The position numbers were made by a program, and so were the translations under genes. A model generated the notes under the pieces. That model saw nothing but the letters and a program-made list of their open reading frames with translations, had not been told where the DNA came from and made no database searches. A stretch of 63,970 nucleotides of DNA, counting the filler, from Klebsormidium nitens (taxonomy: Eukaryota; Plantae; Klebsormidiophyceae), in assembly GCA_000708835.1 (NCBI GenBank). It is 5 parts of 5 records of this genome, joined end to end, with 100 filler letters (N's around TTAATTAATTAA, not from the genome) between each part and the next. Parts side by side here need not be neighbours in the genome. Positions count along the whole stretch, not along the records: positions 31,147 to 49,795 come from DF237915.1; 4 more parts are not named here. One strand, 5' to 3'. Below, piece after piece: positions 34,901-60,905 of this stretch. Position 1 is the stretch's first letter. Every line of letters starts with the position of its first letter.

Positions 34901-37900
34901 NNNNNNNNNNNNNNNNNNNNNNNNNNNNNNNNNNNNNNNNNNNNNNNNNNNNNNNNNNNNNNNNNNNNNNNNNNNNNNNNNNNNNNNNNNNNNNNNNNNN
35001 NNNNNNNNNNNNNNNNNNNNNNNNNNNNNNNNNNNNNNNNNNNNNNNNNNNNNNNNNNNNNNNNNNNNNNNNNNNNNNNNNNNNNNNNNNNNNNNNNNNN
35101 NNNNNNNNNNNNNNNNNNNNNNNNNNNNNNNNNNNNNNNNNNNNNNNNNNNNNNNNNNNNNNNNNNNNNNNNNNNNNNNNNNNNNNNNNNNNNNNNNNNN
35201 NNNNNNNNNNNNNNNNNNNNNNNNNNNNNNNNNNNNNNNNNNNNNNNNNNNNNNNNNNNNNNNNNNNNNNNNNNNNNNNNNNNNNNNNNNNNNNNNNNNN
35301 NNNNNNNNNNNNNNNNNNNNNNNNNNNNNNNNAAACTTCTCAGCTCCTTCTTTGAAGTAGGGATGTGGATCCATATGCTCCTTCCTTCTGGCCGTCACTT
35401 TTTCGACAGTAAGGCAAGTCAGATTGAGTACGAAAAGCTGGACACGCCCGAATCTGGATCGCATGCAATTAAGACGACTTGAGTTTTGACTTTGAGTTGA
35501 TCAATATCTTTTGATCAAGATTGATTTCGTTTTGCAGGGGCCTCGTCATAGCACGTACAACATGTACGACTAAGTTGTGGGCGAGTTTTTGGAAATCGGT
35601 TTAATTGATATGTGTCAGGACGTAAGACATGGCACCTGAATGTTTCTTGATCAGCAAGCGTGGAAGCCGAGTTTCATTAGAAGCATGTAAGGAGCACTGA
35701 TGAGTTGCGGCCAAGGCCCAAATTGCAAAGAGAATCTTGCGGCTATGTATTCTCGTATTCGAACCTAATGCTTATCTCTGAATGCTTGTATCTGCGCCTG
35801 TACAAGATTAACACTCAAGATTAACACTCAGATAGCCACAAGGATATCGGTTGCGAGGCTCTGTCAGAGCTAAGCTCGATGGGCAAAATGATAGCTATAA
35901 CAAGGTACCCAGCTTGAGATTCAAGAAGTACCTAATCACCAATTGGGCCAGGCGCATTTGAGGTGTTGAGCTTTACGGATAGATTTTGCTTCGTCAGCAT
36001 CTCCTATTGATGAGTTCCTACACTGTGTACGACACTGTATGCATGTGACACATGTGTTGCTTATGAAAAGATGGTACAGTTTCGATGTGCCTACCTAAAA
36101 CAGCTAGGCCTAGCTAGTATTAGTTGAAGTTTGAACCCATGACGTTTTGGCACAACATGTTCGATCGATTAGCAAAGCCATCTGTTTAGGGTTCGGGCTA
36201 GGGTTTAACCCTTTTGCCCACGATCGCTCAAGCACGTTCTACCGTCGATATTTCGCCTGCGGCGACCGACGGCCGTAAGAACGCCTCGGCGGGGGCCCTC
36301 CCGGGCCCCCTCCCGACCTCGTTTTTGCCCGGTTTTCCCTCCCGACCCTTAGAACGCGGCCCGTGGCGCGACCTTGCATTCCCTCCCCGGGCGGCAGGGA
36401 TGGTTCATATGATATCCCCATAAGGGCTCTCTCCCAGACCATAGGGGATGGTCCCATCCATTACCGAGCTGTGGGCCGTTCCCACACAGCAAACCCTAAT
36501 GCTGGCTGGTACAGTGACTGTGGTACTCGTAGTTGTAGAGAGCCAGGCACTACCCGGTACCGGCCGGCCACTTGGGCTCTTCTCGGGCCAACTGTAGTAC
36601 CGGTATGCAGCTCAGGCACTATGCAGAGCAGAATTGACCATCAGTGGCGCTTGCCTCTTGCACCTCTGCCGCGCCAGCAAGCTCCTCTGCTCACATTTTT
36701 ACGGATTGTATCAGGGTTCTCTCAGTGGAGTCTGACTTGGCGGTCCCTCAGCAAAATTTCCCTCAGGAGTTCTCGCTTTCATGACCGTCGTTGGTGGTTG
36801 GTTTGTGGGCAAGGTAAGCTTTGCAAAATCATTGCGCTAAATGCGTGGCTGCCCTTTTCTCCTCTCTTTGAAGACAAGCGTGGTCCCCTCTTGGTTGATT
36901 ATGTCCTGTGTTCCTACCAATTAGAACATGATGGCACTTTGCATTTGCCTTTTATGATTGGATGACACATTTGGTGGTTTCTGAAGTATCCTCTGAAGTT
37001 CACCAATCAATTGCCCTTACTTCTACGAAGTTGGATTAGGCAAAGCCAGGACATTGAGGCAGACCTGAAAATGGGATCAGGGGTCAGCTCCTGGCATGCG
37101 TGCGCCACGTAACGGCTTGTTCTCTTAGTGTGTGTACTGGTCAACTGCGTCACTGCGTAACGGCTTGTTCTCTCAGAAGTGTACTGGTCAAGAACAGCGT
37201 GTTCATTGTATAAGTATTATTGTACCCGGGCTATTAGTTACAGAATCAAGGAATCAGAAGGGTTATGGCCAGGCTCCTGTGTGTACGAAGACAGACTTTT
37301 TTGAAGTACCATGAACTTGGCCTCAAGGCAGAACTTTTCAATCTTTCATCATCGATGGTAAGGTGGCAGGGTTCAGGAGTAGGTCTGGTCTCTTTCAATT
37401 GAGATCACATTCATTATTGGTACGTGGCAATCAACAAACGGCTTCATTCACCCCCACAAAGCATACTCATGTAGACGTTTCTATCACAGGGTCTGAGCGC
37501 TGGCGACCAGCAATAGAGTCTTGTCAATGACGCAGTCTGACAGAGGTATCTTGGGCACCAGTAATGGGAGTTGCGAGCAGCTGGGTTCATGCTGTCATCC
37601 CCAGAGCCAGGTAAGCGACGGGCTTGTTTGAAAACTAAGGCGATCTAAGGGACATCTGAGATGCAACTTCTTGACAGCTTCTTAAGTTAGGCGAAGATTA
37701 AGAGCCTCTTAGTAAATCAAATCCTGCGGCCTATCAGGAATTTGATCATCAGTCGAACCAGACAAATTTTTGGAGAGTATCATTGGCATTCTCTTGACGA
37801 GCCTGGTGACCTGCCGGCTTGTCAATAGGGTCTGTCAATCAGGCTTGCTTATATTGGGAGTGTGCTTCTCAAATTATATATTGGGAGGGGTCCAATCATT

Positions 37901-38919
37901 GAGTCCCTCAGGAAGCACCTTTTGCTAAGCTTTCAGAGTCAACTTCAAGGGTCGTCAGCCAGCTGGCCACATGCTCTGGGCTGGGCAAGTACAATTCGGA
38001 CGGTTTCTTGTTAGTCCTCAGTTGCTGGCGGCCTTTCTGAAGCGTCCGCAAGAGGTCGCCGGTGTTGTGGTAGTGCAGGCTGAGGCTGGCTGTTACGACT
38101 TTCCGAACATGGTGGTTTGTCTTGTGACCTGTTCAGGTGGTGGATCCCACAAAGGGTGCGCAACTCAAGGTTCGAGAAAGAGACTCCCTCCTTCTGACCT
38201 TTGATGCTCTTCATGCAAATTCCGGATACAACCATGGGGGACTCCGCCCAACACTCCCCCAACTGCTTAAGCCTCCAACAACAGACATATGGCCTCCCAG
38301 AAGCCGTCTCCCCGCCAGAGTTCCAAGTCCTAGTGAGGAGCGCGCTTCTGCAGACTACTGTAAGGGGGCAGCGCGTCTTTCGAAGGAACGCAGGGAGCGT
38401 GTGCAGGCTGGCAAGAGAGGTGTGCGGGTCGGCAGGTCTTGACTGGTCAGAGGCTGCCTGGCATGGGTCGCTGACCGCTGCAATGAGCGGCCTGGAGGGG
38501 CTCACTAGCGTCCAAGAATCGGCCATGCTCGAGGGCTTCAGGCAAGTTATTGCCTCGGCGGCTGCGGCCCACCTTGAGGGGCTGAAGCAGCCGGGTAAGG
38601 TGCGGGCCCGCAGAGCTAAACCCCAAAGCCCAAGCCCAATCCCCCCGGGCAAGCACACCGGCAATGATTGCAACAAGCAGCTGGGGGCACGTTCAGGTAA
38701 GCCATTGGGTTGCGTCTAAGTCCTGGTCTAAGTCCTGGTCAGTCTGGTCAGGCGATGCTAGGTCATTGGGGCTGTATTGACGGGGTGGGGAATCAAGTAC
38801 AGGGGAAGTAGTCAGTGAACTGGCTCTGACTGGGTGTGCCAGCATGTATTGCAGCGCCCCAATTGCATGCAGCGCTGTATTGCTTGCCAGTTTTAAAGGG
38901 CTTTTTCAAGCTTCTTCAC

Positions 38920-39230
38920 GTGCCAAGCTTTGCCTCTTTCTCTTTTAGAGTATAAGAGGTTGTTTCTTGGTACATGCTGTCAGCTACAAAGTCCTAATTA
39001 GGCATCTCAGCTAATATGGCAGGGGTCGCCGTCCCTTCAGTGTACCAAGGTTGCCAGTTTCTTTTTAAAAGTATAAGAGGCCGAATCTTGGTACATGCTG
39101 TCAACTACAAAGTCCTAATTAGGAATCTCAGCTGATATGGCAGGGGTCGCCGTCCCTGCAGTGCACCAAGGTTGCCTGTTTCTCTTTAGAGTATAAGAGG
39201 CCGAATCTTGGTACACGCTGTCAACTACAA
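38920..39230 (-). repeat. ~120-bp palindromic-core minisatellite, cluster 1 (3 copies, inverted relative to clusters 3 and 4)
   Basis: TG(T/C)ACCAAG...~35 nt...CTTGGTACA cores at ~38920 (degenerate left arm), 39042 and 39162. Confidence 0.85.
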
Positions 39231-40170
39231 ACTCCCAACCCCACTAGGTCAGAAGAAAGTGTGATGATTGCAAAAGGTGGGGGTGGGTTGCGGCGCACAT
39301 CAAGTTTTGCATGCCTCTCTCAGTTCAGACTCCAGGTTCTTACCCAAACTCTGTCTTCTTTTTCAGACCCACATACTCTTCACTGCGACGAGTGCGCTGC
39401 CACCACAGAGTTCGGGCTACGAGGAAGCAAGGACGGGGGGAAGGTCAAGTACTTTTGCAGAGGGCATGTCGAGTCAAGTGGCTGCTTTCGTGTCGACAAA
39501 GATCGCGCAGGTAAGAGCATGTCATCATTTCGGCGCGGTCCATGTACGCGAAGCTCTGAGCTGTTCGAGCCCTTGTCCGCCTGCATCTTCAGTCTTGAGT
39601 CCATACCCTATACAGCAGTGTATCAAACACCTTCTGCGCCTCAAGTGCAGCTTGGACGCAGAATCGGGTTGAATGGCGCTTGAAGGCAGAGCTTGCTAGA
39701 CTCGAAGAGGAGCTGCGGCAACTGGGAGGGGCATCGTCCACTACGGATGATTGCGGCCAGGGTTGCTGCCTGTCAGGTGAGCGTTATGATTCAGACATGC
39801 TGGCAGATTCGTCCGAGGCTGGACATGCGGCATGCGGCAGGTTTGTTCGAGCCTTGCCACGAGTCTTTTCCAGTTGCCTCTGCGGCCGACGGCTTGCTGT
39901 GATCCATCATATGACCCTGGACTCAGTGCCTCGTTTACCATTTGCAGCTTGCAACGAATCCTGGCAGAACGCGGCGCACTGGGATTCAACGCCTAAGAGC
40001 AGATCGCTTATAGGTGAGACAACCGATGGCAGCGCTAGCTCTGGAAGCATGCGGTTGGTGCATCTCAGGTGTTGACGGTTCCTTTGTTTGCACGAATCCT
40101 GCGTCCAGCAAGCAGCACTTGCCCGTGCTTCAAACGAACCGTGTTCCCTGCAGCAAAGCTTCTGGCGATC

Positions 40171-40197
40171 GGTTGCGTGGAAAGCAACCCCGGACCT
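40171..40197 (+). other. 2A/StopGo-like ribosomal skipping motif GCVESNPG|P
   Basis: ggt tgc gtg gaa agc aac ccc gga cct, in frame in exon 40154-40284. Spliced context is SRSLI|AKLLAIGCVESNPGP; it matches the G-D-(V/I)-E-x-N-P-G-P consensus except D>C. Confidence 0.6.
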
Positions 40198-40672
40198 GTG
40201 CTGGACGAGGTGACTGCAGCTTCGGGCGAGACCCGGCCACGGGATGTTGGCGGTCGGCCACCCATCCAGATTCCATCTCTTCGGGTAAGCCTTTCCCAAT
40301 GTGACATGGGTGTTTTGTGACATCTGCCTTCAAGTGACTTGGCTCAATCGAGTAGCTCACAGTTCTGTTACCGAGAACGGGTTCTTTGCTGGCAGTTCAT
40401 GGCAAGTGCATGCCGTTTTTCTCATGAAAGCATCATTCCCTACATTTGTGCTGCGCAGAAGGTTCATCCGGCACCATCCCAGGATCAACCTAACGTCGAG
40501 CGCATATATGCCGCCTCCTATGCGGATTGGCGGAAGAACAGTGGGCTGAGCGAGCAGGTGAGTCCTTTGCCCGAGCAATTTGAAAATGGCCGTTGCATGA
40601 GGAGGTGCAGCTTGCCGACTACGGACTATCCGTCCGGGCCTTGTTTGTTGAGAGACGGAGGTTTGCAGGGGA

Positions 40673-40840
40673 TGTACCAAGCTCTGCCCTCTTCTCTTTA
40701 GAGTAGAACATGGCAATTCTTGGTACAGCGCAGTCAATCACAGTGACCTGCTAGAAACGGCCGGCCTTGAGAGGATGTACCAAGCTTTGCCCTCTTCTCT
40801 CTTGAGTAGTAAATGGTCGATTCTTGGTACACGTGCCATC
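40673..40840 (-). repeat. Palindromic-core minisatellite, cluster 2 (2 copies)
   Basis: TGTACCAAG...CTTGGTACA at 40673-40727 and 40776-40831. The flank gcgcagtcaa is the reverse complement of the ttgactgcgc flank seen at 43 kb. Confidence 0.85.
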
Positions 40841-41151
40841 AATTCAAGGTTCTTCAGTTCGCAACTTTTCGAGTATTCTCTTAATTGATCTGCTCTCTTC
40901 TACCCCTGTTATTGATCTTGAGCAAGCTTGTTTCCCACTTGAACGCTGCCTTTGTGCAGTGGTCTCCTGCAGTCCTATGCAAGCTTCTCATGCCGTCCCT
41001 CTTGCAGGCTGTGCCCGGCAAGCCTACGGCGGTGCCCGAGTCCGAGGGCGTCGTTGAACCTACTACCCTCGTCCCTCTTCAAGAACCACATACTGCTGGC
41101 GTCCCGGCGGAGGTAAGTAGACTACACCAGTTATATTGGTCGATTCACTTC

Positions 41152-41535
41152 TCAGTGAAGCCACCGACTTTGCTCGTAGAGCCTCTCGTTGTAGGAGTCC
41201 TCGAGGTAAGTCCGGTCTTTGGTATCATAATCAAGAAACGGAAGGCCCTCTTTGTCTTTGTACAGCCACCGACCTCCAAAGAAGCGTACCACGAAACCAA
41301 CGGGGCCCTTCACCTCGAAACCACCTCCTTGCTTGCATTTCCAAAACATTGCCGGCCAATCGAGATTCCTTGTCCAAGCGCCGCACCTGTACTCTTGTGA
41401 AACCGCGTCGATTGCCTCTGTAACCGCACTTAGAAACATCCTTGCCGACTCGCATGCATCTCTGTGATCATCGGCAAATTTGAAGAGGTCGCTGAGCTGC
41501 TTGTCCGACAGGCCCATGTATGCTTTGGTAGCCAT
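41152..41535 (-). CDS. Intronless 127-aa ORF nested antisense in an intron of gene A; unknown product
   Basis: ATG-initiated, with globular-looking composition (aromatic and charged residues), lying between gene A exons 41008-41112 and 41804-41971. No motif recognised. Confidence 0.4.
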   Translation of the reverse strand: MATKAYMGLSDKQLSDLFKFADDHRDACESARMFLSAVTEAIDAVSQEYRCGAWTRNLDWPAMFWKCKQGGGFEVKGPVGFVVRFFGGRWLYKDKEGLPFLDYDTKDRTYLEDSYNERLYEQSRWLH

Positions 41536-42066
41536 CAGCCCGAAATTTGCTCCTTTGGTGGCGAAGTCATTCCCCTAAGCTCATTCGGCTTCACTCCTAG
41601 CAGGTCGATGATTCCTCTGCAAGCACGACTGTTTCGAGCCTCGAGGACTCCGAGGACGTGAACCTTGGCAAGTTTGTTTCCTGGAGGAAGGCCAGAGCTG
41701 CGGAGGTCAGCGAAGCTGCATCCGGACCTACATAGATGTGCGCTGTTCCTTGCATGTCGGCCTTTGAGCAGAGGTGTCTTGTGCGGGTTTGGGGTTGCTG
41801 CAGGGTGGTTCGGAGCCGTTTCGGCTCGATGCAGACGAAGAGGCCCGCGGTATGGCCCCAAACCCGACGGCAGCTGGCGAGCAGGCGGAGGAGCTGACGC
41901 CGGTGGACAGACTGGAGGAGGAGTCGACGCTAGCAGGCAGGTTGGAGGAGGGGCCCGCGCTACCGGATGAGGTAATGTCTGCTCGGAGAAGATTGTGAGC
42001 ATTGTAGGCTAGACATGGGCCGTGAACGTTACTTAGGGGAATCGAACAACCCGAGTAGAGCAAGTT

Positions 42067-42490
42067 ATGGGGTACTCCACCAAGTTCACCGGCCGTTTTG
42101 CGCTTTCCAAGCCGCTCAGTAAGGAACAGCATGATATTCTCCAGCAAGTACAGCTGCACCGTCATATTGAGGGCTCGCTGCCCCCATACACGGTCGCTGG
42201 AGACTGTGACGTGCTGCTCGTTCATAATGAGAACCGGCGTTGCCGGTGTGATAGGTGTGAAGGGGCTGATCTGTGTCCACCGTTTCCACGGTATTGCCAG
42301 TGGATACTTTCTCCGAATGGCCGTGCTCTCATGTGGGACGGCGGGGAGAAATTCTATTGCTATCTGGCCCTGGTTGAAGTATCTGATGTCGCACTTTTTT
42401 CTGCCTTGGGGAGTGGAACTGAAGGGGACTGTCAGATGGCGCGGCAATGGGAAGAGTGATTGTGGCGTGATTGTGGTCCAGTCCAACGAG
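42067..42490 (+). pseudogene. Phage/virus-type conserved hypothetical domain (MGYSTKFTGRFAL...CQW...WDGGEKFY..PWLKYLMSHFFLPWGVELKGTVRW), +1 frameshift at ~42366
   Basis: ORF 42067-42459 joined to the frame of 42098-42514 reconstructs a motif pattern I recall from small uncharacterised phage proteins. It is flanked by a possible phase-0 acceptor (42060) and donor (42491). Confidence 0.55.
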
Positions 42491-43059
42491 GTCTGCGCAC
42501 GTGCCTTACCTTGATCAACTTCCGACGAGAACCAGACAACCAGCACCCTTCGATCTTGAAGCCTCTTGAAATTTCGGCAGTATCTCAAACCCTCTTAGAG
42601 GCCTCTAAACGTTCTTGCTTTTGTCGCGGTGGCTTTCCACTGAAGCAGCTAGCTGACGCCACCTTGTGAAGGGCCAAGAACGTAAACCAAAAGCTCTTGA
42701 ACGTGCACTCAACCTTTTTCCTCACGCAGGATCCGGAAGACGCCAGCGAGAGCATCGAAGACTCATCCGGAGAGACGGAAACGGAGGAAGAGCCGGACTC
42801 CAGCGATCTGAGCGCCATGGATGATTCTGAACAATCCAATGACGATCCCAACCTGCACCGTGCCGTTGACCAGACGCGAGAGAAAGAGAAGCTGCCACGG
42901 TCTGTGAATGCTGCTCTCGCTGGCATGCGCTTAGAAACGGAGAGGAGGCGCCAACAAGAAGAAGCGTCGGGCTCTGATCGGATTCGCCAGTCTGCCGTGT
43001 CCGACTTCGACCCTGGTTCCGGGTCGGATCACAAGTGAGAGAGACTGTACGTTTTTGAG

Positions 43060-43620
43060 GGTGAACTATGGTTGACTGCGCTGTACCAAGAATTGCATTT
43101 TACTCTTCTAGAAAGACACAGGCGAAACTTTGTACATGACTGCAGGAACGACCATGCCTGTGAGTTTCCGAAATATGTTTTGTAGTTGACTTTGCTGTAC
43201 CAGGATTCGCTCTGTACTTTTCTAAAGAGAGACAAGCAAACTTTGGTACATCACTGCAGGAACGGGCATGCTCAAGTGTGAGTTTCTGCTCGGGCACTGT
43301 CATGGATTGGGTTGTACCAAGATTCGCCCTTTTCTTTTCTAAAGAGAAACTCGCAAACTTTGGGACGTCACCAGTTGCAGACCCCCCATGCATGTGTGTT
43401 TTCGAAGAATCTAGCTTTTCTAGTTGACTGCGTTGTACCAAGAATCGCCCTTTACTCTTCTAACCTGGAGAAACAAGTGAATCTTCGTAGAACACTGTAG
43501 AAACGCCCATGCCTGTGAGCTTTCGAAACGGTAGCTTTTGCAGTTGACTGCGTTGTACCAAGAAGCTTCACTTTTTCGAAGAGAAACAGGTGAACTTGCT
43601 ACAGGCACCGTTTTGTGGTA
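43060..43620 (+). repeat. Palindromic-core minisatellite, cluster 3 (5 copies, period 114-121 bp)
   Basis: TGTACCA(A/G)G at 43082, 43196, 43313, 43434 and 43554, each followed by a pyrimidine run, a purine run, a degenerate CTTGGTACA and a variant of ctgcaggaacg..catgc. Confidence 0.9.
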
Positions 43621-44898
43621 TGCCATCGGACCGTTTTTGCCAGACTTTGGACACGAAGACTTATAGTTTGTTACCCGCAGAGGGCATTGATCTGAATATT
43701 GTGTGTTCCTTTTTATTCAGGGAGCAAGGCGCCGCTCATGGGCTGTCCCAAGGCTTCACCGCTGTGCCGGAGCCGGAGATCCGCTCGGAGCCTCTGACCG
43801 GGAATGAGGTGTTCAAAAAGGACGAGTTCCGTGTTCTGCGAGTGCACGAATTCGGCACCAATTGCTTCCATCAAGCTGGAAAGAACTTGAGCCGTTTTCG
43901 TAAGCACTTCATGCAACAAGAGGCCGCCCTGCTCAACCATGGAGTGCAAGTGGCCCTCCACAAGTTCTCTGGCAACCGTACCGAAGCAGGGGTTCCAATC
44001 GCTTGGCGCAGCTTCGCCTCCTATCCTAATTGGGAGACAGCCCAGGGAAACCTCGAAGGCCACGGCTCTGTCTTTGAGGTCATCCAAAACGGGAGGCCGT
44101 GCAAGCCCTACTTAGATCTGGACGGCAAGGACGGGCTCCCCTTAAAGTGCAAGTCGAAGCAACCCGCTGCGGCCTCAGCCGGAACAGGGAAAGCCCAGGT
44201 GAAACTCCTGAAACGGGGCCCAGCACTCAGGCCGGGGAAGCCGCGGGCAGTGTAGAGGAACATGGGAAAGGCGGTGAGGGGCGGTTCAGGCGCGAGGAGG
44301 TGATTGAGATTATCGAGCGATGGGCAGTGGTCGTCTTCAAGGATTCATATGCCCTGGACTTAGAGCCAAGCAGCTTTGTCTGGTTAGAGAGTGGGGGGCA
44401 GACCAAGTTCAGCCTCCACCTAACAATCAACCAGCTTCTGCCCCGCCAGTTGGTCTTCCCATCGAATTCCGAGAATGGCGCATCACACTTTGCCACACAC
44501 CTCAAGCAGAGGCTACAACCCTGGCACCCCACTATTGCCCCCCTCATCGACTTGAACGTGTACTCAAAGGATCGGGAGTGGCGCACACCGGGAAGCGCCA
44601 AGGTCGAGAAACCGAAGAGCGTCCTGAGATTCCTGAAGCCTGCCCACACCTGGAGAGACGGGCTGGTGACTTGGCTGCAATCTCTCGAGGTAAGCTGTGT
44701 GGTTCCTGTCCTGGGGTTCGTTTGTGCTCCAACCGCTGCCAGTGAAGGGCTTTTCTAACCCTCTTTCCTTGTTTGAAGTGACAACTTCTCTCGTGCCCTG
44801 AAGCGTCATCAACGTGTTGGGTCGCTTTTCAGTCAACGAACAAAACAAGCCTGGTAACCAGATTGTAAACCCTCTAGTATGCAATTTCGACCAGTCGA

Positions 44899-45165
44899 TT
44901 TTGCTGCTAACCAATCCGCAAACCAGCTTTTTTGGTTGCTAACCAGCCTGCTCACTCTTCGTTTTGCTGCTAACCAGCCTCCTAACCAGCTGGTTTGCTG
45001 CTAACCAGTCCGCAAACCAGCTTTTTTAGTTGCTAACCAGCCTGCTACTTCTTCGTTTTGCTGCTAACCAGCCTCCTAACCAGCCGGTTTGCTGCTAACC
45101 AGCCTCCTAAGTCTTCGTTTTGCTGTCAACCAGCTTCCTAACCAGCTGGTTTGTGCCAACCAGCT
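44899..45165 (+). repeat. CTAACCAG-based simple repeat with ~94-bp higher-order duplication, in a gene A intron
   Basis: Many (g)ctaaccagc units; 44902-44995 is nearly identical to 44996-45090. Confidence 0.85.
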
Positions 45166-48100
45166 TCTCAGCCATTGTTCTTTCTTATTGTCGGGAGGAT
45201 TTGCTTCTAATCCACCTGTTGTACCAGACACATCGGTTCGCTGTTTACAGTCGCTTTACTGACTTTGCTTTCACTGGGCCCAGGGCCCAGTTTTCCTTTC
45301 AACCTATCTTTGTGAGGAGGTGGCCTTTTCTGATCACTTCAGCTCCTGAAAGAGCTCCCTTTCCTCTGTGCGCCTGTATGCTACTATTGCTGATCATGTG
45401 TTGTCGAACTGTGCTGCAGGCTTGCGAGGAGATCAAACTGCCGTTCCAGCTGCCTAAAAATATGCATCGGGGGTTCAGAACCCCTCAGCACATGACCCGC
45501 GAGGGGACCGGGCGAACTCCACAGAATGGGGCTTTCGTTAGAGCCCGCATGCTGCAGTTGCTCAGAGAGCGGCTGCACCCCACTGCCTACGAGGAGGGCC
45601 CCGATCGGTTCAACTACTTTGATCGCTTAGAGCCTTGCTACACCGATCGCATCCACGAGAACCATCAGAACCTCACCTGTCATCTGACCCCAAATAGCAA
45701 GATATATGCCCTATGTTTCTGCACCAACGTCGAAGGCGGGGGGTCAGAGTCACCCTGCCGGACCAAGGCCTTCTACCTCGGGGACCTGTTCGAGGACGAC
45801 ATCACCTACGACTCTGGGGCCGTCTGTGTGGACATGCAGTATCTCCAGCGGGACCCCCAGGCATCCAGCCCCGAGCTTCTGAGCGAAGTGGCCCGGGGTC
45901 AGGCGCAGGCCACAAATGCTTTCAAGCTCAACACTGTGGCTAACGAGTAGGTATTTGTTTGACTTTGTGTCTTCACTTGAGCACGAGACTACCTGACTCA
46001 AATGCTGATTTTGTACATTCGTATTGAGGATCTTGTCTTTAAGAGAAGAACGGCTGACTTGTGGTACATGTCTGTGCACTCTTGGCACGAGGACGATCTG
46101 CATTTCCATCCATCGTGACAAGATTGTAGGACTTGGTGTACACTTGCTGATCCAATCCGTTAAGCCTGTGCACTGAAAGGTCCCGCAGTTTGAAATCGTT
46201 TTCGCTGCATGCTTATCCACTCTTATACAGGTTGGAAACATACCTTGCCTGCAAGTTGAGCAAATGCGCGCTTTCTCCCCCTTGCATGTTTTCGAAAAGC
46301 ATCGGAATCAGTCGCCGTGTGTTCTGATCTTGAAGAAGAAGAAGAACTTCCCCTCAGTGCTCCGGCTACAGGGAGATTCGAGTGTGCTTTGGGCCCCTTT
46401 CATTTCATTCTAGACTGAGGAGAGCTGCCGTGTATAATCTGACGAACTCTATGGTACTTGCAGGTGGCTTGCGGGGGCTTTTCAGCTGCTTGCCATCCGC
46501 TCTGCGGTTAACACGGGCAAGACGGAGTTTTGCAGTAGGGTAGTCGAGGAGATCTTTTGCCAAGTCAATGGCCGCCTGCTCAAGATACTCATGATCACAT
46601 ATCGGGTTGCGCAAAGCCAAAGATCTGAAGAAGCGCTTTCCGGGTGCTGCAAACTACCTCGATCTGAAAGCAGACTACAACGACGAGTTGTTCCCTGATC
46701 CCGACGACCCCAACGACTTCCAAACTGCGCTTCAAAACCGGGGCAAGTTCCCCTGGGTAGTAGTTCAGGTGGACAGCCTCCTCGGCTTGCGTCCGCACGG
46801 GATCGGCGAGGTCGCCCCTTTCGACCTCGTCATTCTGGACGAGGCCGCCAGCATTCTGGCGCATCTGTCTTCTGCGACCTTGCGGTGCGGCCTGGAAACC
46901 GGCGAGCTGTTCCTCGAGATCGTGCAGAAGGCCAAGCGCGTCCTGGCGATGGACGACGGCTACGGCCAACGCGAGCACGACTTCTTCCAGCTGGCAAGGG
47001 TACCAGGGAAGCTCGTAATCAACATGCGACGGGCTCAGGTGGGTTCTCTTGCTCCATGTAGGTCTGCCCTCGATTCGAGCATGCTTTGAGTCTTCGTTCG
47101 AATTCTGGGTTGCATCCTTGCTGTTCCCACGCATTTGGTTCGACTGCCCTGATATGGGTCGAGACCTGCATATGTAAAGTTGCTTGGTTGCGCCTCGCTT
47201 CGTTTTGGTGCTGTGTTAGCATCCGTACAATGTGCATTGGTGTTCTGTAGAGCTTCAATGAATCACAACTTGCAAGGAGCAGCCTGCCTCGGTGACAATG
47301 ATTGATGTTATTGATATATCCATTGTTCACTCGTTCTGAACCTTGACTTGAATTGCGCTGCAGGTGCCTCTCACGTTTCAGGTCGGTAAAGACGAAGTGC
47401 GATGGCTGGATCGTATCGTTGACGATTTGTCGGCCAATAAGAACGTTGTTGTTGTCAGTATGTCGGCCCGCATCTTGGATAGGATTCGTGATCGGGTTAC
47501 GAGTCAGGGAGTCCAGGACACTCTGGGGCTCGACCCGGATCGGAACATCCTGATTCATAGAGCAATGAGCGGGGGGGACAACGTTGAGCTCTACTCGAGA
47601 ACGTAAGGGTCAACTGGAAGGTTCGACTGCTGATGTACAGCCCTTCAGTCGAGGCGGGGGTGAACTTCGACGAGGCTTGGTTTCACAGCAAGTACCTATA
47701 CATGTGCAAGAAGAGCACGACAGCTCGGGCTGTTTGGCAGGCTTCATTGAGGGTCCGCCAGACGAAAAGCCCCGTAGTGCACTGCTTCGTGCAGTCAGGC
47801 ATCTCTGTGCGGCTCGACGGTGCCCGCGTGGTCCCGTTGGCACATGCAGAAGGGCTGGTAAGTGATCCTTCTGTCGTGGTTGCTCTAGACAGGCTAGTAA
47901 GTCCGCTCGTGCATTGACTTCGCGTCTCCATGACAGAGTAAGCGATCAATGTTGACTCGATTGTGAACTTGCGTTGTCTCGCCTGTCGACACTGCACATT
48001 TGCTATATCCAAGCAGGATTGAACGTCGGATTATCGATGTTAGATGTGCCTTTTGAAGCCCCCTTTCACGTGGACTCTATGCTGAAGTTCTAACCCCTGA

Positions 48101-48334
48101 GCTGCTTCGATCCATTTGATGCAGGAGAGCGCTGCGGCGTCACCAACACAGTCAGAGCTGGATCAGGACGCGGAGGATGACGTGAGTCCCGAGGTACGTG
48201 CCAGCTTGCTATGCTTCTGGTTTGTTAAAGAATGCTTTTGGATTGCTTCTGATAGGGTTTCTTTCCGAGCAGGTCGGGAGTAATGGTTTAGTCTCTATTG
48301 ATCCATTTCGATGTTCATCATGAAAGTGTTACAG

Positions 48335-48650
48335 GTAGTGTTGTACCAAGATTTGCCTTTTACTTTTCTAGACAGAAACAGGCGATTCTCGGTCACTGCA
48401 GGAACGGCCATGCCTATGGTTTGTGGGGCGGCTAGCTTCAGTGGTTTGTTGGGCGGCTAGCTTTTGTGATTGACAGCATGTACCAAGGTTTGCCTTTTAC
48501 TTTTTTAGAGAGAAACTGGCGAATCTCGGTACATCACTGCAGGAACGGCTATGCCTAGCTTCTGTAATTGATTGCGTGGTACCAAGAATCGCCTTTTACT
48601 ATTCTAAAGAGAGACAAGCAAAATCTGGTACACGTTCTTCAGTAGAACAG
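48335..48650 (+). repeat. Palindromic-core minisatellite, cluster 4 (3 copies)
   Basis: (T/G)GTACCAAG cores at 48342, 48479 and 48578, with ggcgaatctcggtaca-type right arms. Confidence 0.88.
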
Positions 48651-49895
48651 CCTGGTTACCTCAAGCGATTACATTTGATTCATACCACCGTCAACCGCCT
48701 TCTGACATTGAAACTTAAAACCTCATTCTTCAGGCGCAGTCAGACGACGACGACAGAGAGCGACTTGACGAGCAAGTGGCCAGTGGGGTACCTCTGGAAG
48801 TGCCTCGTCGTGCCAAGCTGGCAGCTACAAATCGTCACGGTTCTCGTTGCAAGAAGGGAAAGGGCAAGGTGAGATTCCTTGTTTGCAAAGTGTTCTTCGT
48901 AGAGAAGCCCGCGCGACTTTGACCTCTAGGCTACTTCGATGGCCTACCGAAATTAGGGTAAGCTTGTGAAAGCCACGAGCTGCTGGCATCAAAAGGGCAC
49001 ACCACAAAAGCCAAAGTAATCTGGTGTGATTAGCTTGTTTGATTGAGATCTATACGCATGTGGTTCCTGCAGGTTCACTCTTGGCTTCACATCATTGCCT
49101 GCAATGATTTGCTGCACTCCAAGTCAACCTTGCTTGGGCGAGGCCTGAATATTGCTTTGTCGATCATGCAGGGTGGGCAGCCTGGGTTGTTTCCTCCACC
49201 GCTGCGTGTGACAACAGCGGAGACACTCCAGTTTCTCCAAGCTTGTAGCCTTCGCACAACGGTCGCCTGGCGCCGGGTACCCTCTCGCTTTGAGAGTGGG
49301 AGGGGAACGGTCCGATTGGTCGAGGACGGGCCTCTCTTTCGTACGCTGGGGCACACAGAAGCTGAGCGGCGCAACTCGGATGCCGGCTTGCTGCAGGAAT
49401 TCCAGATGCAGGTCGCGAAAGCTGGGCACGTGGTGAACGTCGAGCCGTACATTGAGCCCGCTCAGAAGGTACGGCGGTCAGGGGGGCTGACTCAAGAAGC
49501 ATACGATGTCATCGGCGCAAGGACGCTCGGGTTTGCAGAGTACAAGGAGCTGGCCAGCCTCAGGAACGTTGGCAGAGATAGGGGGACGCAGCGCGTTGAT
49601 GTGACGGCGGGGCTAGCTAGCACGCCGTTGGACTGAATACACTTACGGCTGTCAGTCTGCTTACACATGTGCGGAAACCATGGGCAAGCTTTGCAGCCAA
49701 CAGACAAGGAAGACACGTGAGAGCGCCTCTTTGTAAAAGTGTTGCTTGATGCTTCCAAGTTCTGTCTGCTGTGTTTCCACTCACGGAGAGGCTGGNNNNN
49801 NNNNNNNNNNNNNNNNNNNNNNNNNNNNNNNNNNNNNNNTTAATTAATTAANNNNNNNNNNNNNNNNNNNNNNNNNNNNNNNNNNNNNNNNNNNN

Positions 49896-50205
49896 AGTCA
49901 GAACGGCCCTCCCTTCCTCTAAACAATGAGGGTCGCCTTTTGACTGGCCTCTCTCGAAAATCCGGCCTGCCGGAGTCAGAACGGCCCTCCCTTCTTCTAA
50001 GAAATGATGGGCACCTTTTGAATCGCCTCTCTCGAACATCCGGCCTGCCACAGTCAGAAAAAGGGCCGGAGACAGAACGGCCCTTCTTTCTTCTAGGAAA
50101 CGATGGGCGCCTTTTGACTGGCCCCTCTCGAGCATCCGGCTCGCTGCCGCTGCAGTTAGAGTGGCCCCCTTTCTCTCTAGAAAACGATAGGCGCCTTTTG
50201 ACTGG
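49896..50205 (+). repeat. 78-bp palindromic tandem array (4 copies, left edge in gap) upstream of gene B
   Basis: AGTCAGAACGGCCC...tcta(g/a)aa...GGG(T)CGCCTTTTGACT units starting at 49896, 49974, ~50052 and ~50154. Confidence 0.85.
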
Positions 50206-50463: not shown

Positions 50464-53400
50464 GAGGTGACCTCCGAGGTGGACGAATGGGGTCAGACAT
50501 GGTACTTCCGGTTTGCACCTGCACAAGCCGCCTTCCAGGAGAGCTTGATGCCACCGGGCGCTTTCATTGCGTCGCGCGACGATAAAACCGGAGGGTCCAA
50601 GATGTACACCGCGTTCAAGAGCACACAAACCTTCGAGGAGTACACTGCGAGGATGGCCGCCGACTGCCGAACGCCGCACTTGCACGAGATCTTGCTCGCT
50701 TCAGATGCTTCTTGGCTCTACTCGGACCTCGACTATACGTCGCGTGCCGACGATCCACAAGACTTTCTCGAGAGGCGCCAGCATCTCCACCACCTCCTCG
50801 AGCACTTCTGCACCCACATCATGCAGCTTCCTCCTGGTCTACTCCAGCCCCTTGAAGTTGCTGCATCCCATGGAGCCCTTTCCCACGGTCTTTACAAGTG
50901 CAGCGTTCACGAGGTTTGGAAGGGAGTCTCCTTCTCGGATCTGGAGGCGCGTACTGAATTCAAATCGGCCTTCAGCCACTTCTTGGACCACCCCCCGGCG
51001 GAGCTGGCACGCAGCGCGGAGTTCATTGGATACATGAAGCCCGACAGCGGGAAGAGAGAACAAATCTCGGATGATTCCGTCTACTCGAGGAACCCAAACT
51101 GGCGCACGCTCCGCTCAAGCAAACTCGGAAGCACGCGCATCCTCTGCCCGGACGAGAGTAGCTCAGAGCGAGTTTCCGACCACCTCATCGGTGTTCGCGA
51201 TGAGCAAGAACTGGCGCGCGCGCACAAGATCGACGTCCGACCGCTGCAAGAGTACAACGCAGCGGCTGGAGGGGGTGGCGCATCGAGTCGCGCGGCGCAG
51301 GGCCGTGTCAGCGATCGGCAGATCCCCGTACGATATTCCTCTAAGCAGCATGAACCACTGGAACGGGACCTCGGCCCGGAGGAGAGAGCGCGCCTGCTCA
51401 GGTGCTGTCAGCAGGATCATCCCGGGGCTATGCTAGGGCGGATCGAGCAACCATGCCCAGGGGTTTTCTGCGTCCACATCTGCAGCCCTCCGGAAAGTCG
51501 GACCTGTTGCATTGCGGGGCGAACGCATACCAGCGAGGGCAACGGACAGTATCTCGTCTACCGTCGGCGACGACCAGCCGAGGCGGCCTACAAGTGCTTC
51601 TCACCGAGCTGCCAGTAAGTTTATGAGCGGTTCTCGTTTCTATGCCGGCGCTGGTCTGGCCTTTCACAAACTCTAGAGATCATAGCGATCAAGTCAGAAA
51701 CCTCATATGCAACGCCTCCGTGTTCCAAAACCATGCCGCAAGAAGACCTGGGAAAAAGGAAAAGCGGGGCGCCAGATCAAAGGCCGACCTCTTCCGTTGC
51801 TGTCTCGTCAACGAGTTGCGACTTCATCTGATCCAGTCAAAAAGCGACCCCTTCTTCTATAATGAAGACCGATCCCTTTTGACTGTGGGCTTGTTGGTTG
51901 ATTGTGGCCTCGCCCATTATATCAAGTCGAGATTGCGTCCTCGTCTTTGTCGCCTCTCCACCAGATTGCCACGTTATGCGGTTAGTCAGAAACGACCTCG
52001 ACTCATGATGGAACCGGACCACATCGTGAAGACTGGCTATGTACATTCAAGAAGTCGTGCTTACCTTGATGCAGAGGCATCGAGCGCCTCTGCTCTCTCG
52101 AGACGTCCCTCTGTTGGACCGAGGAATTACTCGCTGCCGACTGAAATGCGACCCTATCCCACGGTCAAGATCCACTCGGAAACCCTGCGGACGCTTCTGG
52201 TGAAAGCGAACAAGGGGGTCGGGAAGTCGAAGGCCGGTACTGCCTATCTAGTGGAGATGCTCGAGAAGAACCCATCTGCCAGTTGCGTCGTCATCGCTGG
52301 CAACGTGGCGCTGGCTGACAAGCACCTGGAGGAGCTCCATCGAGCGGGGCTGACGGACTTCGTGCTCTACTCCGATGTCGAGCCCTCGTATATTGAAGAC
52401 GAGAGAATCGTCATCTGCATCAACTCCTTGCCCCGACTGAACTCCCTTGACAAAGACATCGTCTACATGGACGAGATCGACATGACGCTGGGCAATCTAA
52501 ACTCCGACGTTATGAGGGACCGCAGATCGGTGTTTATGGCTCTGCACGCAATGCTTCGGGTCGCACGCATCGTCGTGGGGCTGGATGCGAATGTGGACAG
52601 TCCGCGCGTAACCGAGTGGCTTCAAGCGGTCCGCCCAAACGCTCTGATGCACGCCATTTGGAACACGGGAGTTCGCGCCTCGGAGCGAACAGCTACTATC
52701 TGGCCTATGCCCTCCTCTGGGAAGTTGGAGGACCGCTTTGCTCCGATCATCAACCAGATTCTCGACGAGGTGGAGGCTGGTCAGAACATCTGGGTGAGTT
52801 TTGTCAGCCGTGATCCTGATGGCCGTTAATTCTACCAGTGGGTCATTGCAGCCGCAGTTCGAAGCGTCCGCGATGTACCTCCAGCTCGTCGGAATTCATG
52901 AACGATTGTATGCAATCAAAGATTTGTTGTGATAAAGAGAGTTGGACTGGTGTCCGCTTGAAAGCTGGTGATGCTTGTGCTTGACTGGCTCCTTATCAGA
53001 GGCCTAGGATCGATGCCATAGGCGACTCTCCTCCTTCTCTCGATCTGATGGTCGACGTACCTTATGAAACTTGCAGGTCGCCTCGACGAGCAGAACCTTC
53101 ATCGAGCAACTCGAGAGGGCATTCGGTGCAATTTTCACTGGCACGGACAAGACTCTTCTCACCTTCCACGGCGGAAAAACCTCAGCAGAGGACAAAGAGC
53201 AGCTCCGACAGGCAGTGGCTGACCCAGACCGCTACATGGTGGCCCACTGTATGGGATACTCTCCGACCATAGGGCCGGGAGTCTCGCAAGAGGCCCAACA
53301 CTACCACCGGGGCGTGGGAATCGCGCTGAACCGCCCAAACGACGGCCCCGATGTTTTCACCTTCACCCAGATGTTACAGCGGGTGCGAGATGGGGGAGAT

Positions 53401-54651
53401 ATCGACATCTACTACATGGAAATTCCAGCGCCAAAGTTCGTGCCCTCTACCAAAGAGGGCGTGTTCAGAGCAATCGAACGGCAAGACGCCGAGTTGCACG
53501 CTCTGGTGAAACCCTCTGAGGTGCTTGACTTCTTGGAGAGGCCGGGCAAGCGGCCCGTCTGCGATCGGGAGTCTGCAACCTGCATTGTGTATGCCAACAA
53601 TGTCCTGGCGAGGTACCAGAGCATCACAAACTACGTCGGCATCTTGACAAAGGATCTCGAACAGCAGGGTTTTCGAGTGGTGAACAGACTGGCGGAGCCG
53701 CTGGATGATGCCGATGAGCAGGGTGGACCGGAGCGTAGCGGCGATTTAGATCCCGATGCGAGCCTGTCAGACGACCAGTGGCGAGAAGCCTATTGTATCT
53801 CGCCGACGGAATACTACAAGATAAAGGAAAAAAGGAGGAAACTGAAAGGCGTGAGCGAGCTCGAGCAAAAGCAGGTGGACATCTACCATTATGCAAACGA
53901 AGTCTACAAAGTGAACTACAAACAGATCAACCACACATTTCTCACTACCTACTGCAACGAGACGGCCAAGCGCATGTACCTGAACTACCGCAGGTGGAAG
54001 TTTTTCCCTTCTTTCCTTCTTTTTTCCATGATAGTCATCGATGGTTTATCACACAGGCCAATGATGACCTATCTGCATACAACGTGATTGAGAGCACAGC
54101 GGTTTGCTTGTGATGAGACTCGCTAGTCCTTGATAACTCCAGGCCCTCTTTCCAGGTTCCAACGGTCTGCGTACATAGACGTCCAAGCTGAATGGGAAAA
54201 CGAGCTCAGCGAGGCAAACGATGTCCTCCCCACGAAAGACTACCTAAAGATTCGCGACCAAGCCAAGCACCGCGTCGTGTTTGCATACCGCCTGCTCGCA
54301 GAGATGCTCCAGATCGACCCCGGAAATTTCGACCGTCTGCAACTCGGAGCTGCTTACCACGTATCAGAAAAAAACCTTCAAGCTGCCTACTCCAAGCTGA
54401 TCGAGCCAAACCTCTACACTGCAAAGCTTCGATACGAGATCAAACAGAAGGTGAAACGAGACGAGAACGGCCGTCCGATGATGACCGAGGCATTGAAACG
54501 CAACGTGGTAAAGGCAATCCTCGAGAAGGGTTTAGGGCTGAGGTTTGTGGAGGTGCCGGGGAAGAAGAGCAACAACGAATTTGTGAAGGAGCACGAATTC
54601 AGCCCGGAGCTTTGGAAAGAGGTGCACGCTACATACGGACCCGTAGTCTAG
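50464..54651 (+). CDS. Gene B: spliced AEP primase-Zn finger-UL9/origin-binding-like SF2 helicase fusion (~1080 aa). Exons 50464-51614, ~52085/52103-52793, 53077-53993, 54156-54651; possible tiny first exon ATG GAG at 50329-50334
   Basis: AEP motifs: LHEIL...WLYSDLDY, CSVHEVW, DDSVYSRNPNWRTLRSSK. Zn finger: CCIAGRTH...YKCFSPSC. Helicase: Walker A KANKGVGKS, Ia VIAGNVALA, Walker B VYMDEID, YSPTIGPGVS, FTQMLQRVR. No lesion seen in the exons; the start codon and second acceptor are uncertain. Confidence 0.82.
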
Positions 54652-56125
54652 AAGCATAAAGATTCATATCATAATCAAGACTTGTGAACTAGTACGACAT
54701 GTACATAAAAGGCTGCTATATGTGGATATGTTCTGGATAATCCTGTTAATACCTTCATCAAACTACCGCACATCGACATAGAAGACCCGGTTAATTTTCC
54801 CCGAAAGTGGCTGTTTTCAGCGATATGTCGGATATTTGTAGTTGGATTCCCGCGGATTGTTGGGTGCGTTTGCGGAGACCCATCAACCGCGGCCTGGACC
54901 CGTAAGCTACACTTAAAAAGCTGTATGCACCGTCGACATGCTGCGTATGCATTGTTTCAAGTTGAAGAAGGCGTCGAGTCATGTTGTTTTCCTACAAGAA
55001 CGGGTTGCAACTCAGTCAAAACCGCCCTACTCTTTGATATAAAGGAGGCGACTATTGACTGAATGAACCACGTTTGAGCTCACGTGGCTCCAAGCCGGTG
55101 GAAGTGCAATTTAATTATAGAACATCATCAAAGACACGGGAGATTATTGCGAAGAGCTTTCCGACCACATGCCACAGCAAACCCTTGCTGGTTGTTGTCT
55201 TAGTGGCTAGTAGTATATTACGAAAGGTACTCACGACCAGTAATCCCAACCGGCAAACTTCGAGGGAAACTTCGAGGGTCCGATCGCGCATTCTTTCCTG
55301 GGGCATACGAAACGACATGAATCGATATTTCTTTGGTTCACTTCATGTGCAGTAGGAAAAGCGCACCTAAGAATCCCCCTAGCCACCGAAACTCAGACTG
55401 AACCTGATCCGATGTCTAGATATCGACTCGGTATTGTGACNNNNNNNNNNNNNNNNNNNNNNNNNNNNNNNNNNNNNNNNNNNNTTAATTAATTAANNNN
55501 NNNNNNNNNNNNNNNNNNNNNNNNNNNNNNNNNNNNNNNNACCGCTAGGAGCGCTCGCAAAGTCGTGTGCTTGCTCACCGGGGCGCAGACTTCCTCGAAG
55601 TCAATTCCTTGCTTTTGCAAGTACCCTTTCGTCATCACCCGAGACTTATACCGCTCCATGTTCCCAAGCGCATCCCGCTTGATCTTGTAAATCCACTTCA
55701 TCGAAGCCGGTTTCACCCCTTCCGGTTTTTTCGACAAGCTCCCACGTCCCATTTTCCAACAAGGACCGCATCTCCTCGTCCATCGAGTTCCGCCGAAAAA
55801 CGCTCTCTTCTCCCCCTATGGCTTCCGGATGCTCCCCCAATCCCTTAAGGTGCTTCCCCGTTTCCGCCGCCAAATTCGCCCGATACCACTCCCCGGGCGC
55901 CCACCTCGCTCTAGCGGGGTATCTTCGATCCGCCGTCTCTTCTCCATCCGTTTCAACGGACTCCTCGCTCCCGGTGCCGGCCTCCCCCGTAGGGGTAGCC
56001 CCTGCACCGGGCAGAGTGTCGGTCACCCCCGTAGGGGTATCCCCTACACCCATCCGAGTCGGGGGGCTCACCGACTAGGGCCGCGAGCAGCCCCATCCTC
56101 CTTTTCCGGATCGGAGCCAAGCTCA

Positions 56126-56593
56126 CACAACGCAACCACGCCAAGTTTCAACGTACGGTGAATTTCGCGCGGCGGGCAGATTTTGAGCCCCGTAGACTCG
56201 GAGAGGCCCAGAATGGCGATTTTTAGGGTTTTAGGATATGGCCTAGTTTAGGCAGTTCTGCATGTAATATAAATTTGGAAATTGGAAATTTAGCCTTATT
56301 ACGAGCAGTCTAACATCGTATTAAGTTTTCAGTAAGTTCACAGGTGGGGATCTCAAACCGTCACGGTGGAGGTTTTTGCCTATGCAAAATCATAGAGTGA
56401 ATTTGACCGTGAGTTCCGAACCACGGCGGTCACTTTCAGTGGCTTATTGAAAATCGAACTTTCAGCCATCGAAACTTAGGGTTTTGACTCGGACCGTCGA
56501 GGGCTCCGGGACCGTGCGATTGTAAATCTGACGGTCGCTGAAGGAGGCCGGTATCGAACCACTTCGATCTGAAAATGGCGTGGTTGTGTTGTG
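56126..56593. mobile_element. 468-bp non-autonomous TIR element with CACAA termini and 2-bp TSD (CACTA/CMC-like), nested in the copia element
   Basis: TIRs cacaacgcaaccacgcca (56126-56143) and tggcgtggttgtgttgtg (56576-56593), 17/18 match. Flanked by CA on both sides; removal restores the copia frame RGPILIVELGSDP. Confidence 0.85.
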
Positions 56594-57304
56594 CAACGAT
56601 CAGAATGGGCCCACGCTCGTCCACGATGACGTCGCGGGAAGTCAACACCCTATCATCCCGCTCTCGGAGGACTTGGTAGGACTTAGAGTTGGGCTCGTAC
56701 CCCAAGAACACCCCTCGCTCGCTAACCCGCTCCATATTCTTCCAGTTTCCCTTGGGCACGTGGATTGTAGGCCCGCGCCCCAAATACCCGCAAGTGGTTA
56801 AGGTTCGGCTTCTCCTCGTAGAACATCTCCCAGGGCGTCTTGCCGTGCACGCTCGAGGGCACCCGGTTCCGGGTGTAGTTAGCCGTCACCATCGCTTCCG
56901 CCCAGAGCTCCGGCTTCAACCCGGCATCCTCTAGCAAAGCCCGCGCTCTTTCCTCGAGCGTCCGGTTCAACCGCTCCGCCAAACCGTTTTGTTCGGGAGA
57001 GTGCCCCGCCGTTGTGTGGTGCACCGTCCCTCTCTTCTCGAGGAGGGCCGTCATTCCCTCGTTGACATACTCCCCGCCCCGGTCCGGTTTGCACCCCCTT
57101 GACCTTCTTCCCGGATTGCAACTCCAAGCGGGCAAACACGCTCGCCGTGACCGCCGTGACGTCGCTTTTTCGCTTTATCGGTTGCACCACCGAAAGCTTG
57201 CTATAGTCGTCAAGGAAAGTGGCCAAGTACCTACTTCCCCTCTTTGACGCCACCGGCATGGGCCCGCACACGTCCATGTTCACGAGCTCGAGGGGCTCCG
57301 TACT

Positions 57305-57603
57305 TGTTGAAAGTGATAGTGGCTTAGGCGGCCAAATTGTTGGTTTAGGCCGTCGTTACTAGCTAGTTAGCTAGGCTAGTAGAAACCGTACGATATTAGG
57401 TTCTTACTTGATGTGAGCCGTTCGATGGGTTCTTTTGCTAGTAAAAGTTAGCCTTGAGCTAGGCTATTTGACTTGAGCTAATAGCAAAAGAACCCAATTC
57501 GTTCTAGGGGATGCTTGTAAGAGAGGAAGGCGCTTCTCTGTGAAGGCGCTTGTATGTGAGGGTGGTTTGGACCCTATGTTGTTACAAGCATGAGATTTCA
57601 ACA
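57305..57603. mobile_element. 299-bp solo LTR nested in the copia element
   Basis: TGTTGAAA...TTTCAACA termini; 5-bp TSD GTACT/TTACT; removal restores SKESTEPLEL upstream of the integrase core. Confidence 0.82.
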
Positions 57604-60264: not shown

Positions 60265-60364
60265 NNNNNNNNNNNNNNNNNNNNNNNNNNNNNNNNNNNN
60301 NNNNNNNNTTAATTAATTAANNNNNNNNNNNNNNNNNNNNNNNNNNNNNNNNNNNNNNNNNNNN

Positions 60365-60905
60365 GCGATTTGAAAAGTAGTTTGAAGTGCTAAAGTTCGA
60401 AAGGGCGACAAGGTTGTTAGAAGACCAAAAATAGTTCGAAGTGCTGAAGTTCGAGAGGGCGACAAGATTGTTAGAAGACCAGAAGTAGTTGGAAGTGCTG
60501 AAGTTCGAGAGGGCGACAAGGTTATTTGAAGACCAGAAATAGTTTGAAGTGCTAAAGTTCGAGAGGGCGACAAGGTTGTTGGAACACCAAAAGTTGTTGG
60601 AAAAAATCGTGTTTGAGAAAGACGTGATCGTGGTAGTGGTCGCGAGCGTGCCAATCTGATTTGAGCCCCACGTGGCGGTGTTACTATCATAAGCACGAAG
60701 AGGGTAAAAGGTGTTGCTTGTTACAAGATTACTCTGATTGTTAGATCCCCACGTGCTCGTGTTGCTGTCGTAAGCACGGAGGGGGTAAAAGGTGTTGCTT
60801 GTTACAAGATTACTCTGATTGTTAGATCCCCACGTGCTCGTGTTGCTGTCGTAAGCACGGAGGGGATAAAAGGTGTTCGAAGTTATCAAATTGCTTTGGT
60901 TATTG
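60365..60905 (-). repeat. Coding tandem repeats: 60-nt unit x4+ (FWSSNNLVALSNFSTSNY-type) and 81-nt unit x3 (WGSNNQSNLVTSNTFYPLRAYDSNTST)
   Basis: 60-nt period across 60365-60600; 81-nt period (ttacaagat at 60721 and 60802). Confidence 0.92.

Follow-up and report, generated by a model that had tools for sequence, protein, structure and literature searches.

Position, frame and splicing of the motif

Does a StopGo (2A) peptide release a leader protein ahead of a DNA replicase in a spliced nuclear gene of the streptophyte alga Klebsormidium nitens? So far StopGo has been described chiefly in RNA viruses and non-LTR retrotransposons; in this process, the nascent helix and the ExNPG segment prevent the next peptide bond from forming while Gly is in the P site, after which the chain is released by hydrolysis and the ribosome goes on translating. 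We analysed a stretch of 63,970 nucleotides joined from five parts of the K. nitens assembly (the window), in which the sequence carrying the gene ends at an assembly linker at 49796. We located the motif at 40154-40197 (+), where, after a CAG acceptor, a split codon (G/CA) for A is followed by K L L A I G C V E S N P G P. Its last eight residues, CVESNPGP, are coded by 40174-40197, and the skip is predicted between G (40192-40194) and P (40195-40197). No other octamer of this type is present in the six frames of the window, in which chance alone would give about 0.0015 (strict) to 0.005 (loose). The window peptide contains the StopGo core (D/G/C/N)(V/I)ExNPGP as the class is defined in the available parts of PMC12846837, and a hydrophobic upstream run, SLIAKLLAIG, with G at position 11 (p11) of the 20-mer. 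The features of the gene are as follows.

37527-37610 (+): possible upstream leader exon, from an ATG to a GT donor; 62% to residues 1-26 of P0015
38234-38696 (+): leader exon 1, from ATG 38234, the start of the P0001 model; 64% to the P0015 leader
39367-39510 (+): leader exon with the Cys/His module HCxxC...FCxxH, common to P0002, P0004 and P0013-P0015
39651-39776 (+): leader exon with a coiled coil predicted by eye; 65% to residues 155-200 of P0002, placed by phase check
39948-40013 (+): exon coding for residues 1-5 of the 2A 20-mer; 72% to residues 198-222 of P0002
40014-40153 (+): phase-1 intron, GTGAGA...CAG, splitting the upstream, exit-tunnel portion of the 2A peptide; skipped by a paralogue contig in runs X1, X4 and X8
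40154-40197 (+): StopGo/2A motif A-KLLAIG-CVESNPG/P, skip predicted at 40194/40195; 18/20 identical to the P0002 20-mer
40198-40284, 40459-40557, 41008-41112, 41604-41705, 41804-41971 and 42730-43034 (+): acidic low-complexity linker exons, by phase check and partial P0002 matches
43721-45946 (+): PrimPol-type AEP primase and following domain (exons 43721-44689 and 45420-45946); frame break near 44190
46464-47857 (+): UL9-like SF2 helicase (exons 46464-47038 and 47364-47857), PF02399 at E 1.2e-7; breaks near 46610 and 47590-47606
48125-49633 (+): C-terminal exons (48125-48193, 48734-48868 and about 49172-49633), to which P0055 maps; a spliced contig is identical to this copy

All ten exons between ATG 38234 and 43034 are followed by GT, and those after the first follow a CAG; with the exon at 43721 they make eleven that connect in phase into 747 stop-free codons. 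These GT-AG exons place the motif in frame between a Cys/coiled-coil leader of about 280 aa and the primase-helicase, with G18 as residue 280 and primase motif I (PYLDLD) as residue 699 of the predicted spliced product, so that the 2A-like motif ahead of the primase-helicase claimed in an earlier note on this DNA is upheld at the level of predicted exons. The note's further claim, that the motif crosses a splice junction, holds for the 20-mer, which has five residues and one split codon upstream of intron 40014-40153, but not for the core octamer, which lies entirely within the downstream exon.

The junction itself was looked for in four contig sets, the RNA status of the runs being the tool's guess. 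A 2822-nt contig joins 40011 to 40152 (GT..AG, a cut shifted by +2 relative to these positions that equals the predicted intron) in three of the four runs, from three studies; this evidence comes from a paralogue, not from the window's own copy. The contig is probably RNA of KFL_002940130 (P0002), since it carries 40182 A>G, a change that also distinguishes the window from the P0002 20-mer coding sequence, and its remaining junction letters translate to P0002 residues. Paralogue contigs likewise join 38692 to 39363 (GT..AG, cut +4) in 2/4 runs. Contigs identical to the window copy reach a depth of just 2.5-6; one of them, at depth 4.4 in X1, is spliced from 47856 to 48124 and from 48191 to 48732.

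The protein models used are automatic, and the P0001 model leaves out two leader exons. The exon at 37527-37610 may possibly make the leader longer; in the window copy it could be connected to 38234 only out of frame or through an additional intron (frame check). The HCxxC...FCxxH module is likely to bind zinc; its exon gave one weak match, to Zn_ribbon_recom (E=0.11), and no other Pfam match. We do not claim that the leader is an EsV-1-7 protein, because the TM-score was only 0.29 and Pfam gave no match. No usable feature match to the leader was found in the Atlas.

Conservation of the motif among K. nitens paralogues

The window gene corresponds to K. nitens KFL_009660020, which its primase exon matches at 100%; the exon also matched eight further named K. 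nitens proteins at 65-78%, with 12 matches in total. The octamer is present in eight of the 12, counting the window's own model P0001, and the other four models begin at most 145 aa before the primase landmark, whereas the motif sits 251-400 aa before it. A divergent K. nitens protein, P0044 (38% identical), carries the octamer, and the gene model of P0019, which combines a leader exon, a ubiquitin-like domain and a primase-helicase, lacks it. When these two are included, the conservation check proposed in the earlier note finds the motif in 8/9 other K. nitens primase-helicases that are long enough at the N-terminus to be informative. The nine K. nitens rows formed one clade (SH 99) with two deep subclades, and 2A occurs in both (FastTree, midpoint root, 68/158 rows kept by coverage).

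Across 13 proteins with the leader and motif (hereafter cassette proteins), I10, E14, N16, P17 and G18 are invariant, L8 is kept in 12 and G11 in 11. The residue at p12 is G in ten (the family consensus), C in two and A in one, and that at p19 is P in eight, W in three and M in two; directly after p19, identity drops to 0.13 at p20. P0005 carries A12 and P0017 carries H19, and the second K. nitens cassette protein with C12 is P0165. Two unnamed proteins also show a C12 motif, namely P0172, with an OTU-like N-terminus by eye, and P0166, with three tandem 2A-like units. An origin of the 2A peptide from a retrotransposon ORF1 is hinted at by P0169 and P0171 by eye, with no support from Pfam.

The replicase cargo

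By sequence and structure-model comparison, we assign the cargo of the window gene to the giant-virus AEP-UL9 primase-helicase type. A profile of 46 relatives matched human PrimPol (E 7e-18) and the herpes origin-binding protein (E 7e-33), the AEP motif residues D129, H201 and D244 are invariant in the 46 aligned proteins, and 1586 representatives scored at E<=0.001. The model of paralogue P0003 (pLDDT 88) matched PrimPol in Foldseek (E 8e-12) together with giant-virus primase/origin-binding helicases; the AF2 model of P0008 was set aside (pLDDT 35). PF02399 was found in the window and in seven of the nine models scanned, the two misses being models that end before the helicase. A TAG at 45948 was considered as a stop and rejected, as it is intronic (donor GTAGGT at 45947; P0001 reads through).

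The nearest relatives outside Klebsormidium (35-40%) are metagenomic proteins that start at the primase, and distant ones (23-26%) lie in IMG/VR giant-virus contigs; of 14 ORFs neighbouring the metagenomic relatives, three had Pfam matches (C962R-type AEP, PriCT-2 and T5orf172). Scans of viral and metagenome contigs for the K. nitens family itself gave no match. Giant-virus core genes have been reported in K. nitens (PMC5294986, in part). In the 14.5-kb piece 35333-49795 we recognised no capsid, packaging ATPase or DNA polymerase gene (ORF list; Pfam on 18 chosen frames), and there was no terminal inverted repeat among 22 repeat pairs, the right end being lost at the linker at 49796.

Several other features of the window were recorded. 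A 60-75-nt imperfect-palindrome repeat (GTACCAAG...CTTGGTAC ends) lies in introns of the gene at 39168-39229, 40671-40737, 43071-43495 and 48339-48632, and all ten of its blastn matches in the window fall within the gene; it could be a small foldback element or a set of putative sites for the origin-binding helicase. A GC-rich hairpin at 36240-36370 (-26 kcal/mol over 101 nt) may mark an origin of the element or a 5' end that its copies share; a 2279-nt contig matches 36314-36366 close to one of its ends. An intron of the gene holds a 135-codon open frame at 42052-42456 (+), with no Pfam match and a related X1 contig at 13 differences. On the next assembly piece, a second, unrelated primase/UL9-like helicase gene at 50467-54648 (+; PF02399 E 1.4e-20, weak Herpes_UL52) follows 78-96-nt repeats at 49896-50205; it was rejected as part of the window gene, as it lies beyond the linker with no tblastn match to P0002, and the six-frame search found no 2A octamer near it. 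Elsewhere are two related tandem genes at 12374-14270 and 15600-17522 (+), the second without a Pfam match, copia-type integrase-like and pogo/DDE transposase-like fragments by eye at 55560-57800 (-) and 59400-60260 (+), and Asn/Ser-rich repetitive ORFs, virus-fibre-like by eye, at 60317-63651 (-) in an AT-richer piece.

The same leader and motif precede other cargos

A search with the leader found P0013, P0014 and P0015, in which the same leader and motif are followed by putative P-loop NTPase proteins. P0002 and P0013 align over residues 1-234 and 1-236, respectively, up to G18, and their cargos do not align; P0014 (KFL_002940140) is annotated adjacent to P0002 (KFL_002940130). The NTPase matches of P0013-P0015 fall below curated cut-offs, and their cargo resembles AAA_35/Crinkler/PDDEXK clusters with Atlas feature scores of 0.96-0.98 and a TM-score of about 0.55. 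No profile match to an REase domain was found in this cargo, which is predicted to be a nuclease. On these alignments, the replicase is not the only cargo of the cassette, which also heads unrelated, Crinkler-like NTPase proteins.

The leader and the motif are both absent from stand-alone metagenomic homologues: among 147 new matches, the octamer occurs in one (P0044 itself), and it is not present in 639,563 bases of 86 loci. Since the stand-alone homologues are without the motif, the cassette was likely joined to the replicase within the Klebsormidium lineage.

Activity of related peptides and the alternative explanations

We consider it probable that the gene belongs to a family built on a portable, intron-rich leader-plus-StopGo cassette, which would release the leader and continue into a swappable cargo, here the PrimPol-UL9 primase-helicase. 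The L-rich helix together with I-G-[GCA]-[VI]-E-x-N-P-G would stall the peptidyl-transferase centre as viral 2A does, so that the ribosome would release a Cys/coiled-coil leader of about 230-430 aa at NPG and carry on into the cargo. Because the stall would release the leader, the cargo would obtain a free N-terminus from a single promoter and a single mRNA, and incomplete restart (falloff) would keep a replicase or nuclease that might do harm scarcer than the leader. The leader, which has no family match, likely acts as a nucleic-acid-binding helper for the element, and we infer that the cassette genes are probably selfish, virus-derived elements.

The polyprotein reading of the earlier note is favoured by conservation, selection on the peptide, paralogue splicing and a published skipping call with the same leader: in the supplement of the preprint by Snell and Matreyek (PMC13405545), KFL_013500020, a listed sequence with the same Cys leader, is classed as 'skipping', as is a K. 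nitens Ndc10-domain protein with a different 2A. Those classes were assigned by an SVM (86% training accuracy) on pooled 20-mers in HEK293T cells. Among the rows listed in the supplements, we judged at least ten native look-alikes to be family-like, of which 5/10 skip, 1/10 falls off and 4/10 are non-skipping, with 2/10 tied to K. nitens; for bacterial peptides in the same screen, 14.86% were skipping or reduced. The P0002 peptide is listed there as a candidate without a result, and the window peptide is absent from the supplementary files searched. Elsewhere, two candidate motifs are given for a single Klebsormidium protein by Rao et al. 2025 (PMC12338488), and the viral screen of Baral et al. 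(bioRxiv 2026.09.24.754024) found 139/1969 non-canonical-core peptides highly active, both as given in the accessible parts. Against the skipping reading stand the four non-skipping look-alikes, the small share of highly active peptides in that viral screen, A12 in P0005, H19 in P0017 and the motif-less P0019.

Perhaps the peptide is mainly a terminator or attenuator: the leader would be released and the ribosome would mostly fall off, leaving the leader as the real product and the cargo barely made. The P0013 20-mer, 16/20 identical to that of the window, is classed 'Falloff Only' in the PMC13405545 supplement, P0165 consists of the leader, the C12 motif and just about 40 residues beyond it, and in run X1 seven paralogue contigs cover the Cys exon 39367-39510 as against one on the 2A exon (at least 80% identity). 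However, the primase and helicase keep a mean pairwise identity of 74-78%, the P0002 model is open over 1945 aa, and the primase is covered by several paralogue contigs; at least some copies must therefore produce the cargo. Moreover, five of the look-alikes are classed as skipping. We therefore regard this account as unlikely for the family.

A further explanation is that the family uses StopGo but the window copy is a decaying pseudogene, its motif silenced by G>C or by a broken context. The copy is indeed damaged, a point absent from the earlier note, with three frame breaks in the replicase, near 44190, 46610 and 47590-47606. The break near 44190 is probably not an assembly error, because a 174-nt contig identical to the window copy spans 44129-44302 without a gap. 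The window copy cannot make an intact replicase, and its 5' leader is probably broken as well; release of a leader from it could still occur. The low depth of the window-identical contigs and the family consensus of G at p12 (10/13) also fit decay of this copy. On the other hand, its downstream part is still spliced, and a comparison by eye of its 20-mer coding sequence with that of P0002 gave 10 synonymous and 2 non-synonymous differences. Silencing by C12, too, runs against published variants: the earlier note had suggested that the change from D to C may reduce or abolish activity, yet G12, C12, M19 and W19 are natural variants with about 90% activity or more, C at p12 is more than 95% active in its native context, and CVESNPGP itself occurs 54 times in dataset S1 (PMC12846837, in part). 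The same paper reports that D12A kills F2A. As C or G at p12 and W or M at p19 are active in RNA viruses, and C12 recurs in P0165 and P0172, a loss of activity through C12 is not likely, and we drop the note's suggestion; silencing of this copy as a whole seems to us distinctly improbable.

Finally, it is highly improbable that the segment is kept as a structural helix or interaction end of the leader, in a polyprotein that is never separated or is separated by proteolysis. In favour of this reading, p19 is variable (P, W, M, H) and the peptides with measured skipping are not replicase-linked ones, but the invariant and variable positions fit the StopGo pattern, three of about four independent p19 changes are to M or W, the virus-active residues (rough p 0.004, independence assumed), and the type LLxIGG[VI]ExNPG[PW] occurs in five of the seven viral contigs found by pattern, two of which have RNA-virus domains. 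These five IMG/VR contigs are L008 and L010-L013, with W19 in L010, an RdRP in L011 and an RNA helicase in L013.

Comparison with known systems and implications

The peptide type is known already, and some K. nitens family peptides stand in the supplementary tables of PMC13405545. The predicted window peptide agrees in every sequence criterion with class A StopGo, 'motif 5' of Li et al. 2026 (PMC12846837), and the family shares with that motif the core, the L-rich run ending in (A/G/S)G and the rare M or W at p19. However, motif 5 as described in the available text is from RNA viruses, whereas here a streptophyte alga codes for it in nuclear genes that are spliced, with an intron within the peptide and a DNA replicase after it; the same 2026 survey reports almost no natural StopGo use in plant viruses. 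The 2A peptides of APE-type non-LTR retrotransposons (Odon et al. 2013, PMC3708506) and of eukaryotic proteins (PMC13405545) likewise lie near the N-terminus, where they part an upstream function from an enzyme, and lowering of the downstream product has been proposed for such cellular and mobile-element 2A. Unlike these, the Klebsormidium cassette is without reverse transcriptase or APE, has primase-helicase or NTPase cargo, and has a leader common to unrelated cargos. The parts searched of the main texts of PMC3708506 and PMC13405545 make no mention of Klebsormidium, primase or helicase, and in the literature searched we found no report linking StopGo to a DNA replicase, or a shared leader across cargos.

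On the cargo side, giant-virus fusions of AEP and UL9-like domains (Marseillevirus, Bodo saltans virus, ASFV F1055L type) have a PrimPol-like fold and an SF2 helicase in one chain, as here, but the K. nitens genes are intron-rich and multi-copy, with a 400-850-aa N-terminal extension carrying the leader and 2A. CR (Crinkler-RHS) NTPase+REase proteins (PMC5289972) resemble P0013-P0015 in the putative P-loop NTPase of the latter and in modular header swapping; P0013-P0015 differ in having a putatively releasable leader and 2A in front and a free-living alga as host.

At least 13 annotated proteins of a streptophyte alga share one intron-split 2A cassette, placed before a DNA-virus-type replicase or another cargo. 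Among the paralogues, the rare active variants C12, W19 and M19 are all represented, so that nature supplies an allelic series on which StopGo rules could be examined with green-lineage ribosomes. The proteins also offer candidate plant-native 2A tools, the Met-start type included, as well as a lead to an unclassified family of primase-helicase elements. It is possible, if doubtful, that these are undescribed, capsid-less, intron-rich, self-replicating PrimPol-UL9 DNA elements, in which a promoter-leader-StopGo cassette serves as a universal plug for recombined-in ORFs. If true, any ORF placed after the Gly codon would be expressed both free and throttled, and StopGo would drive gene shuffling in a relative of the land plants.
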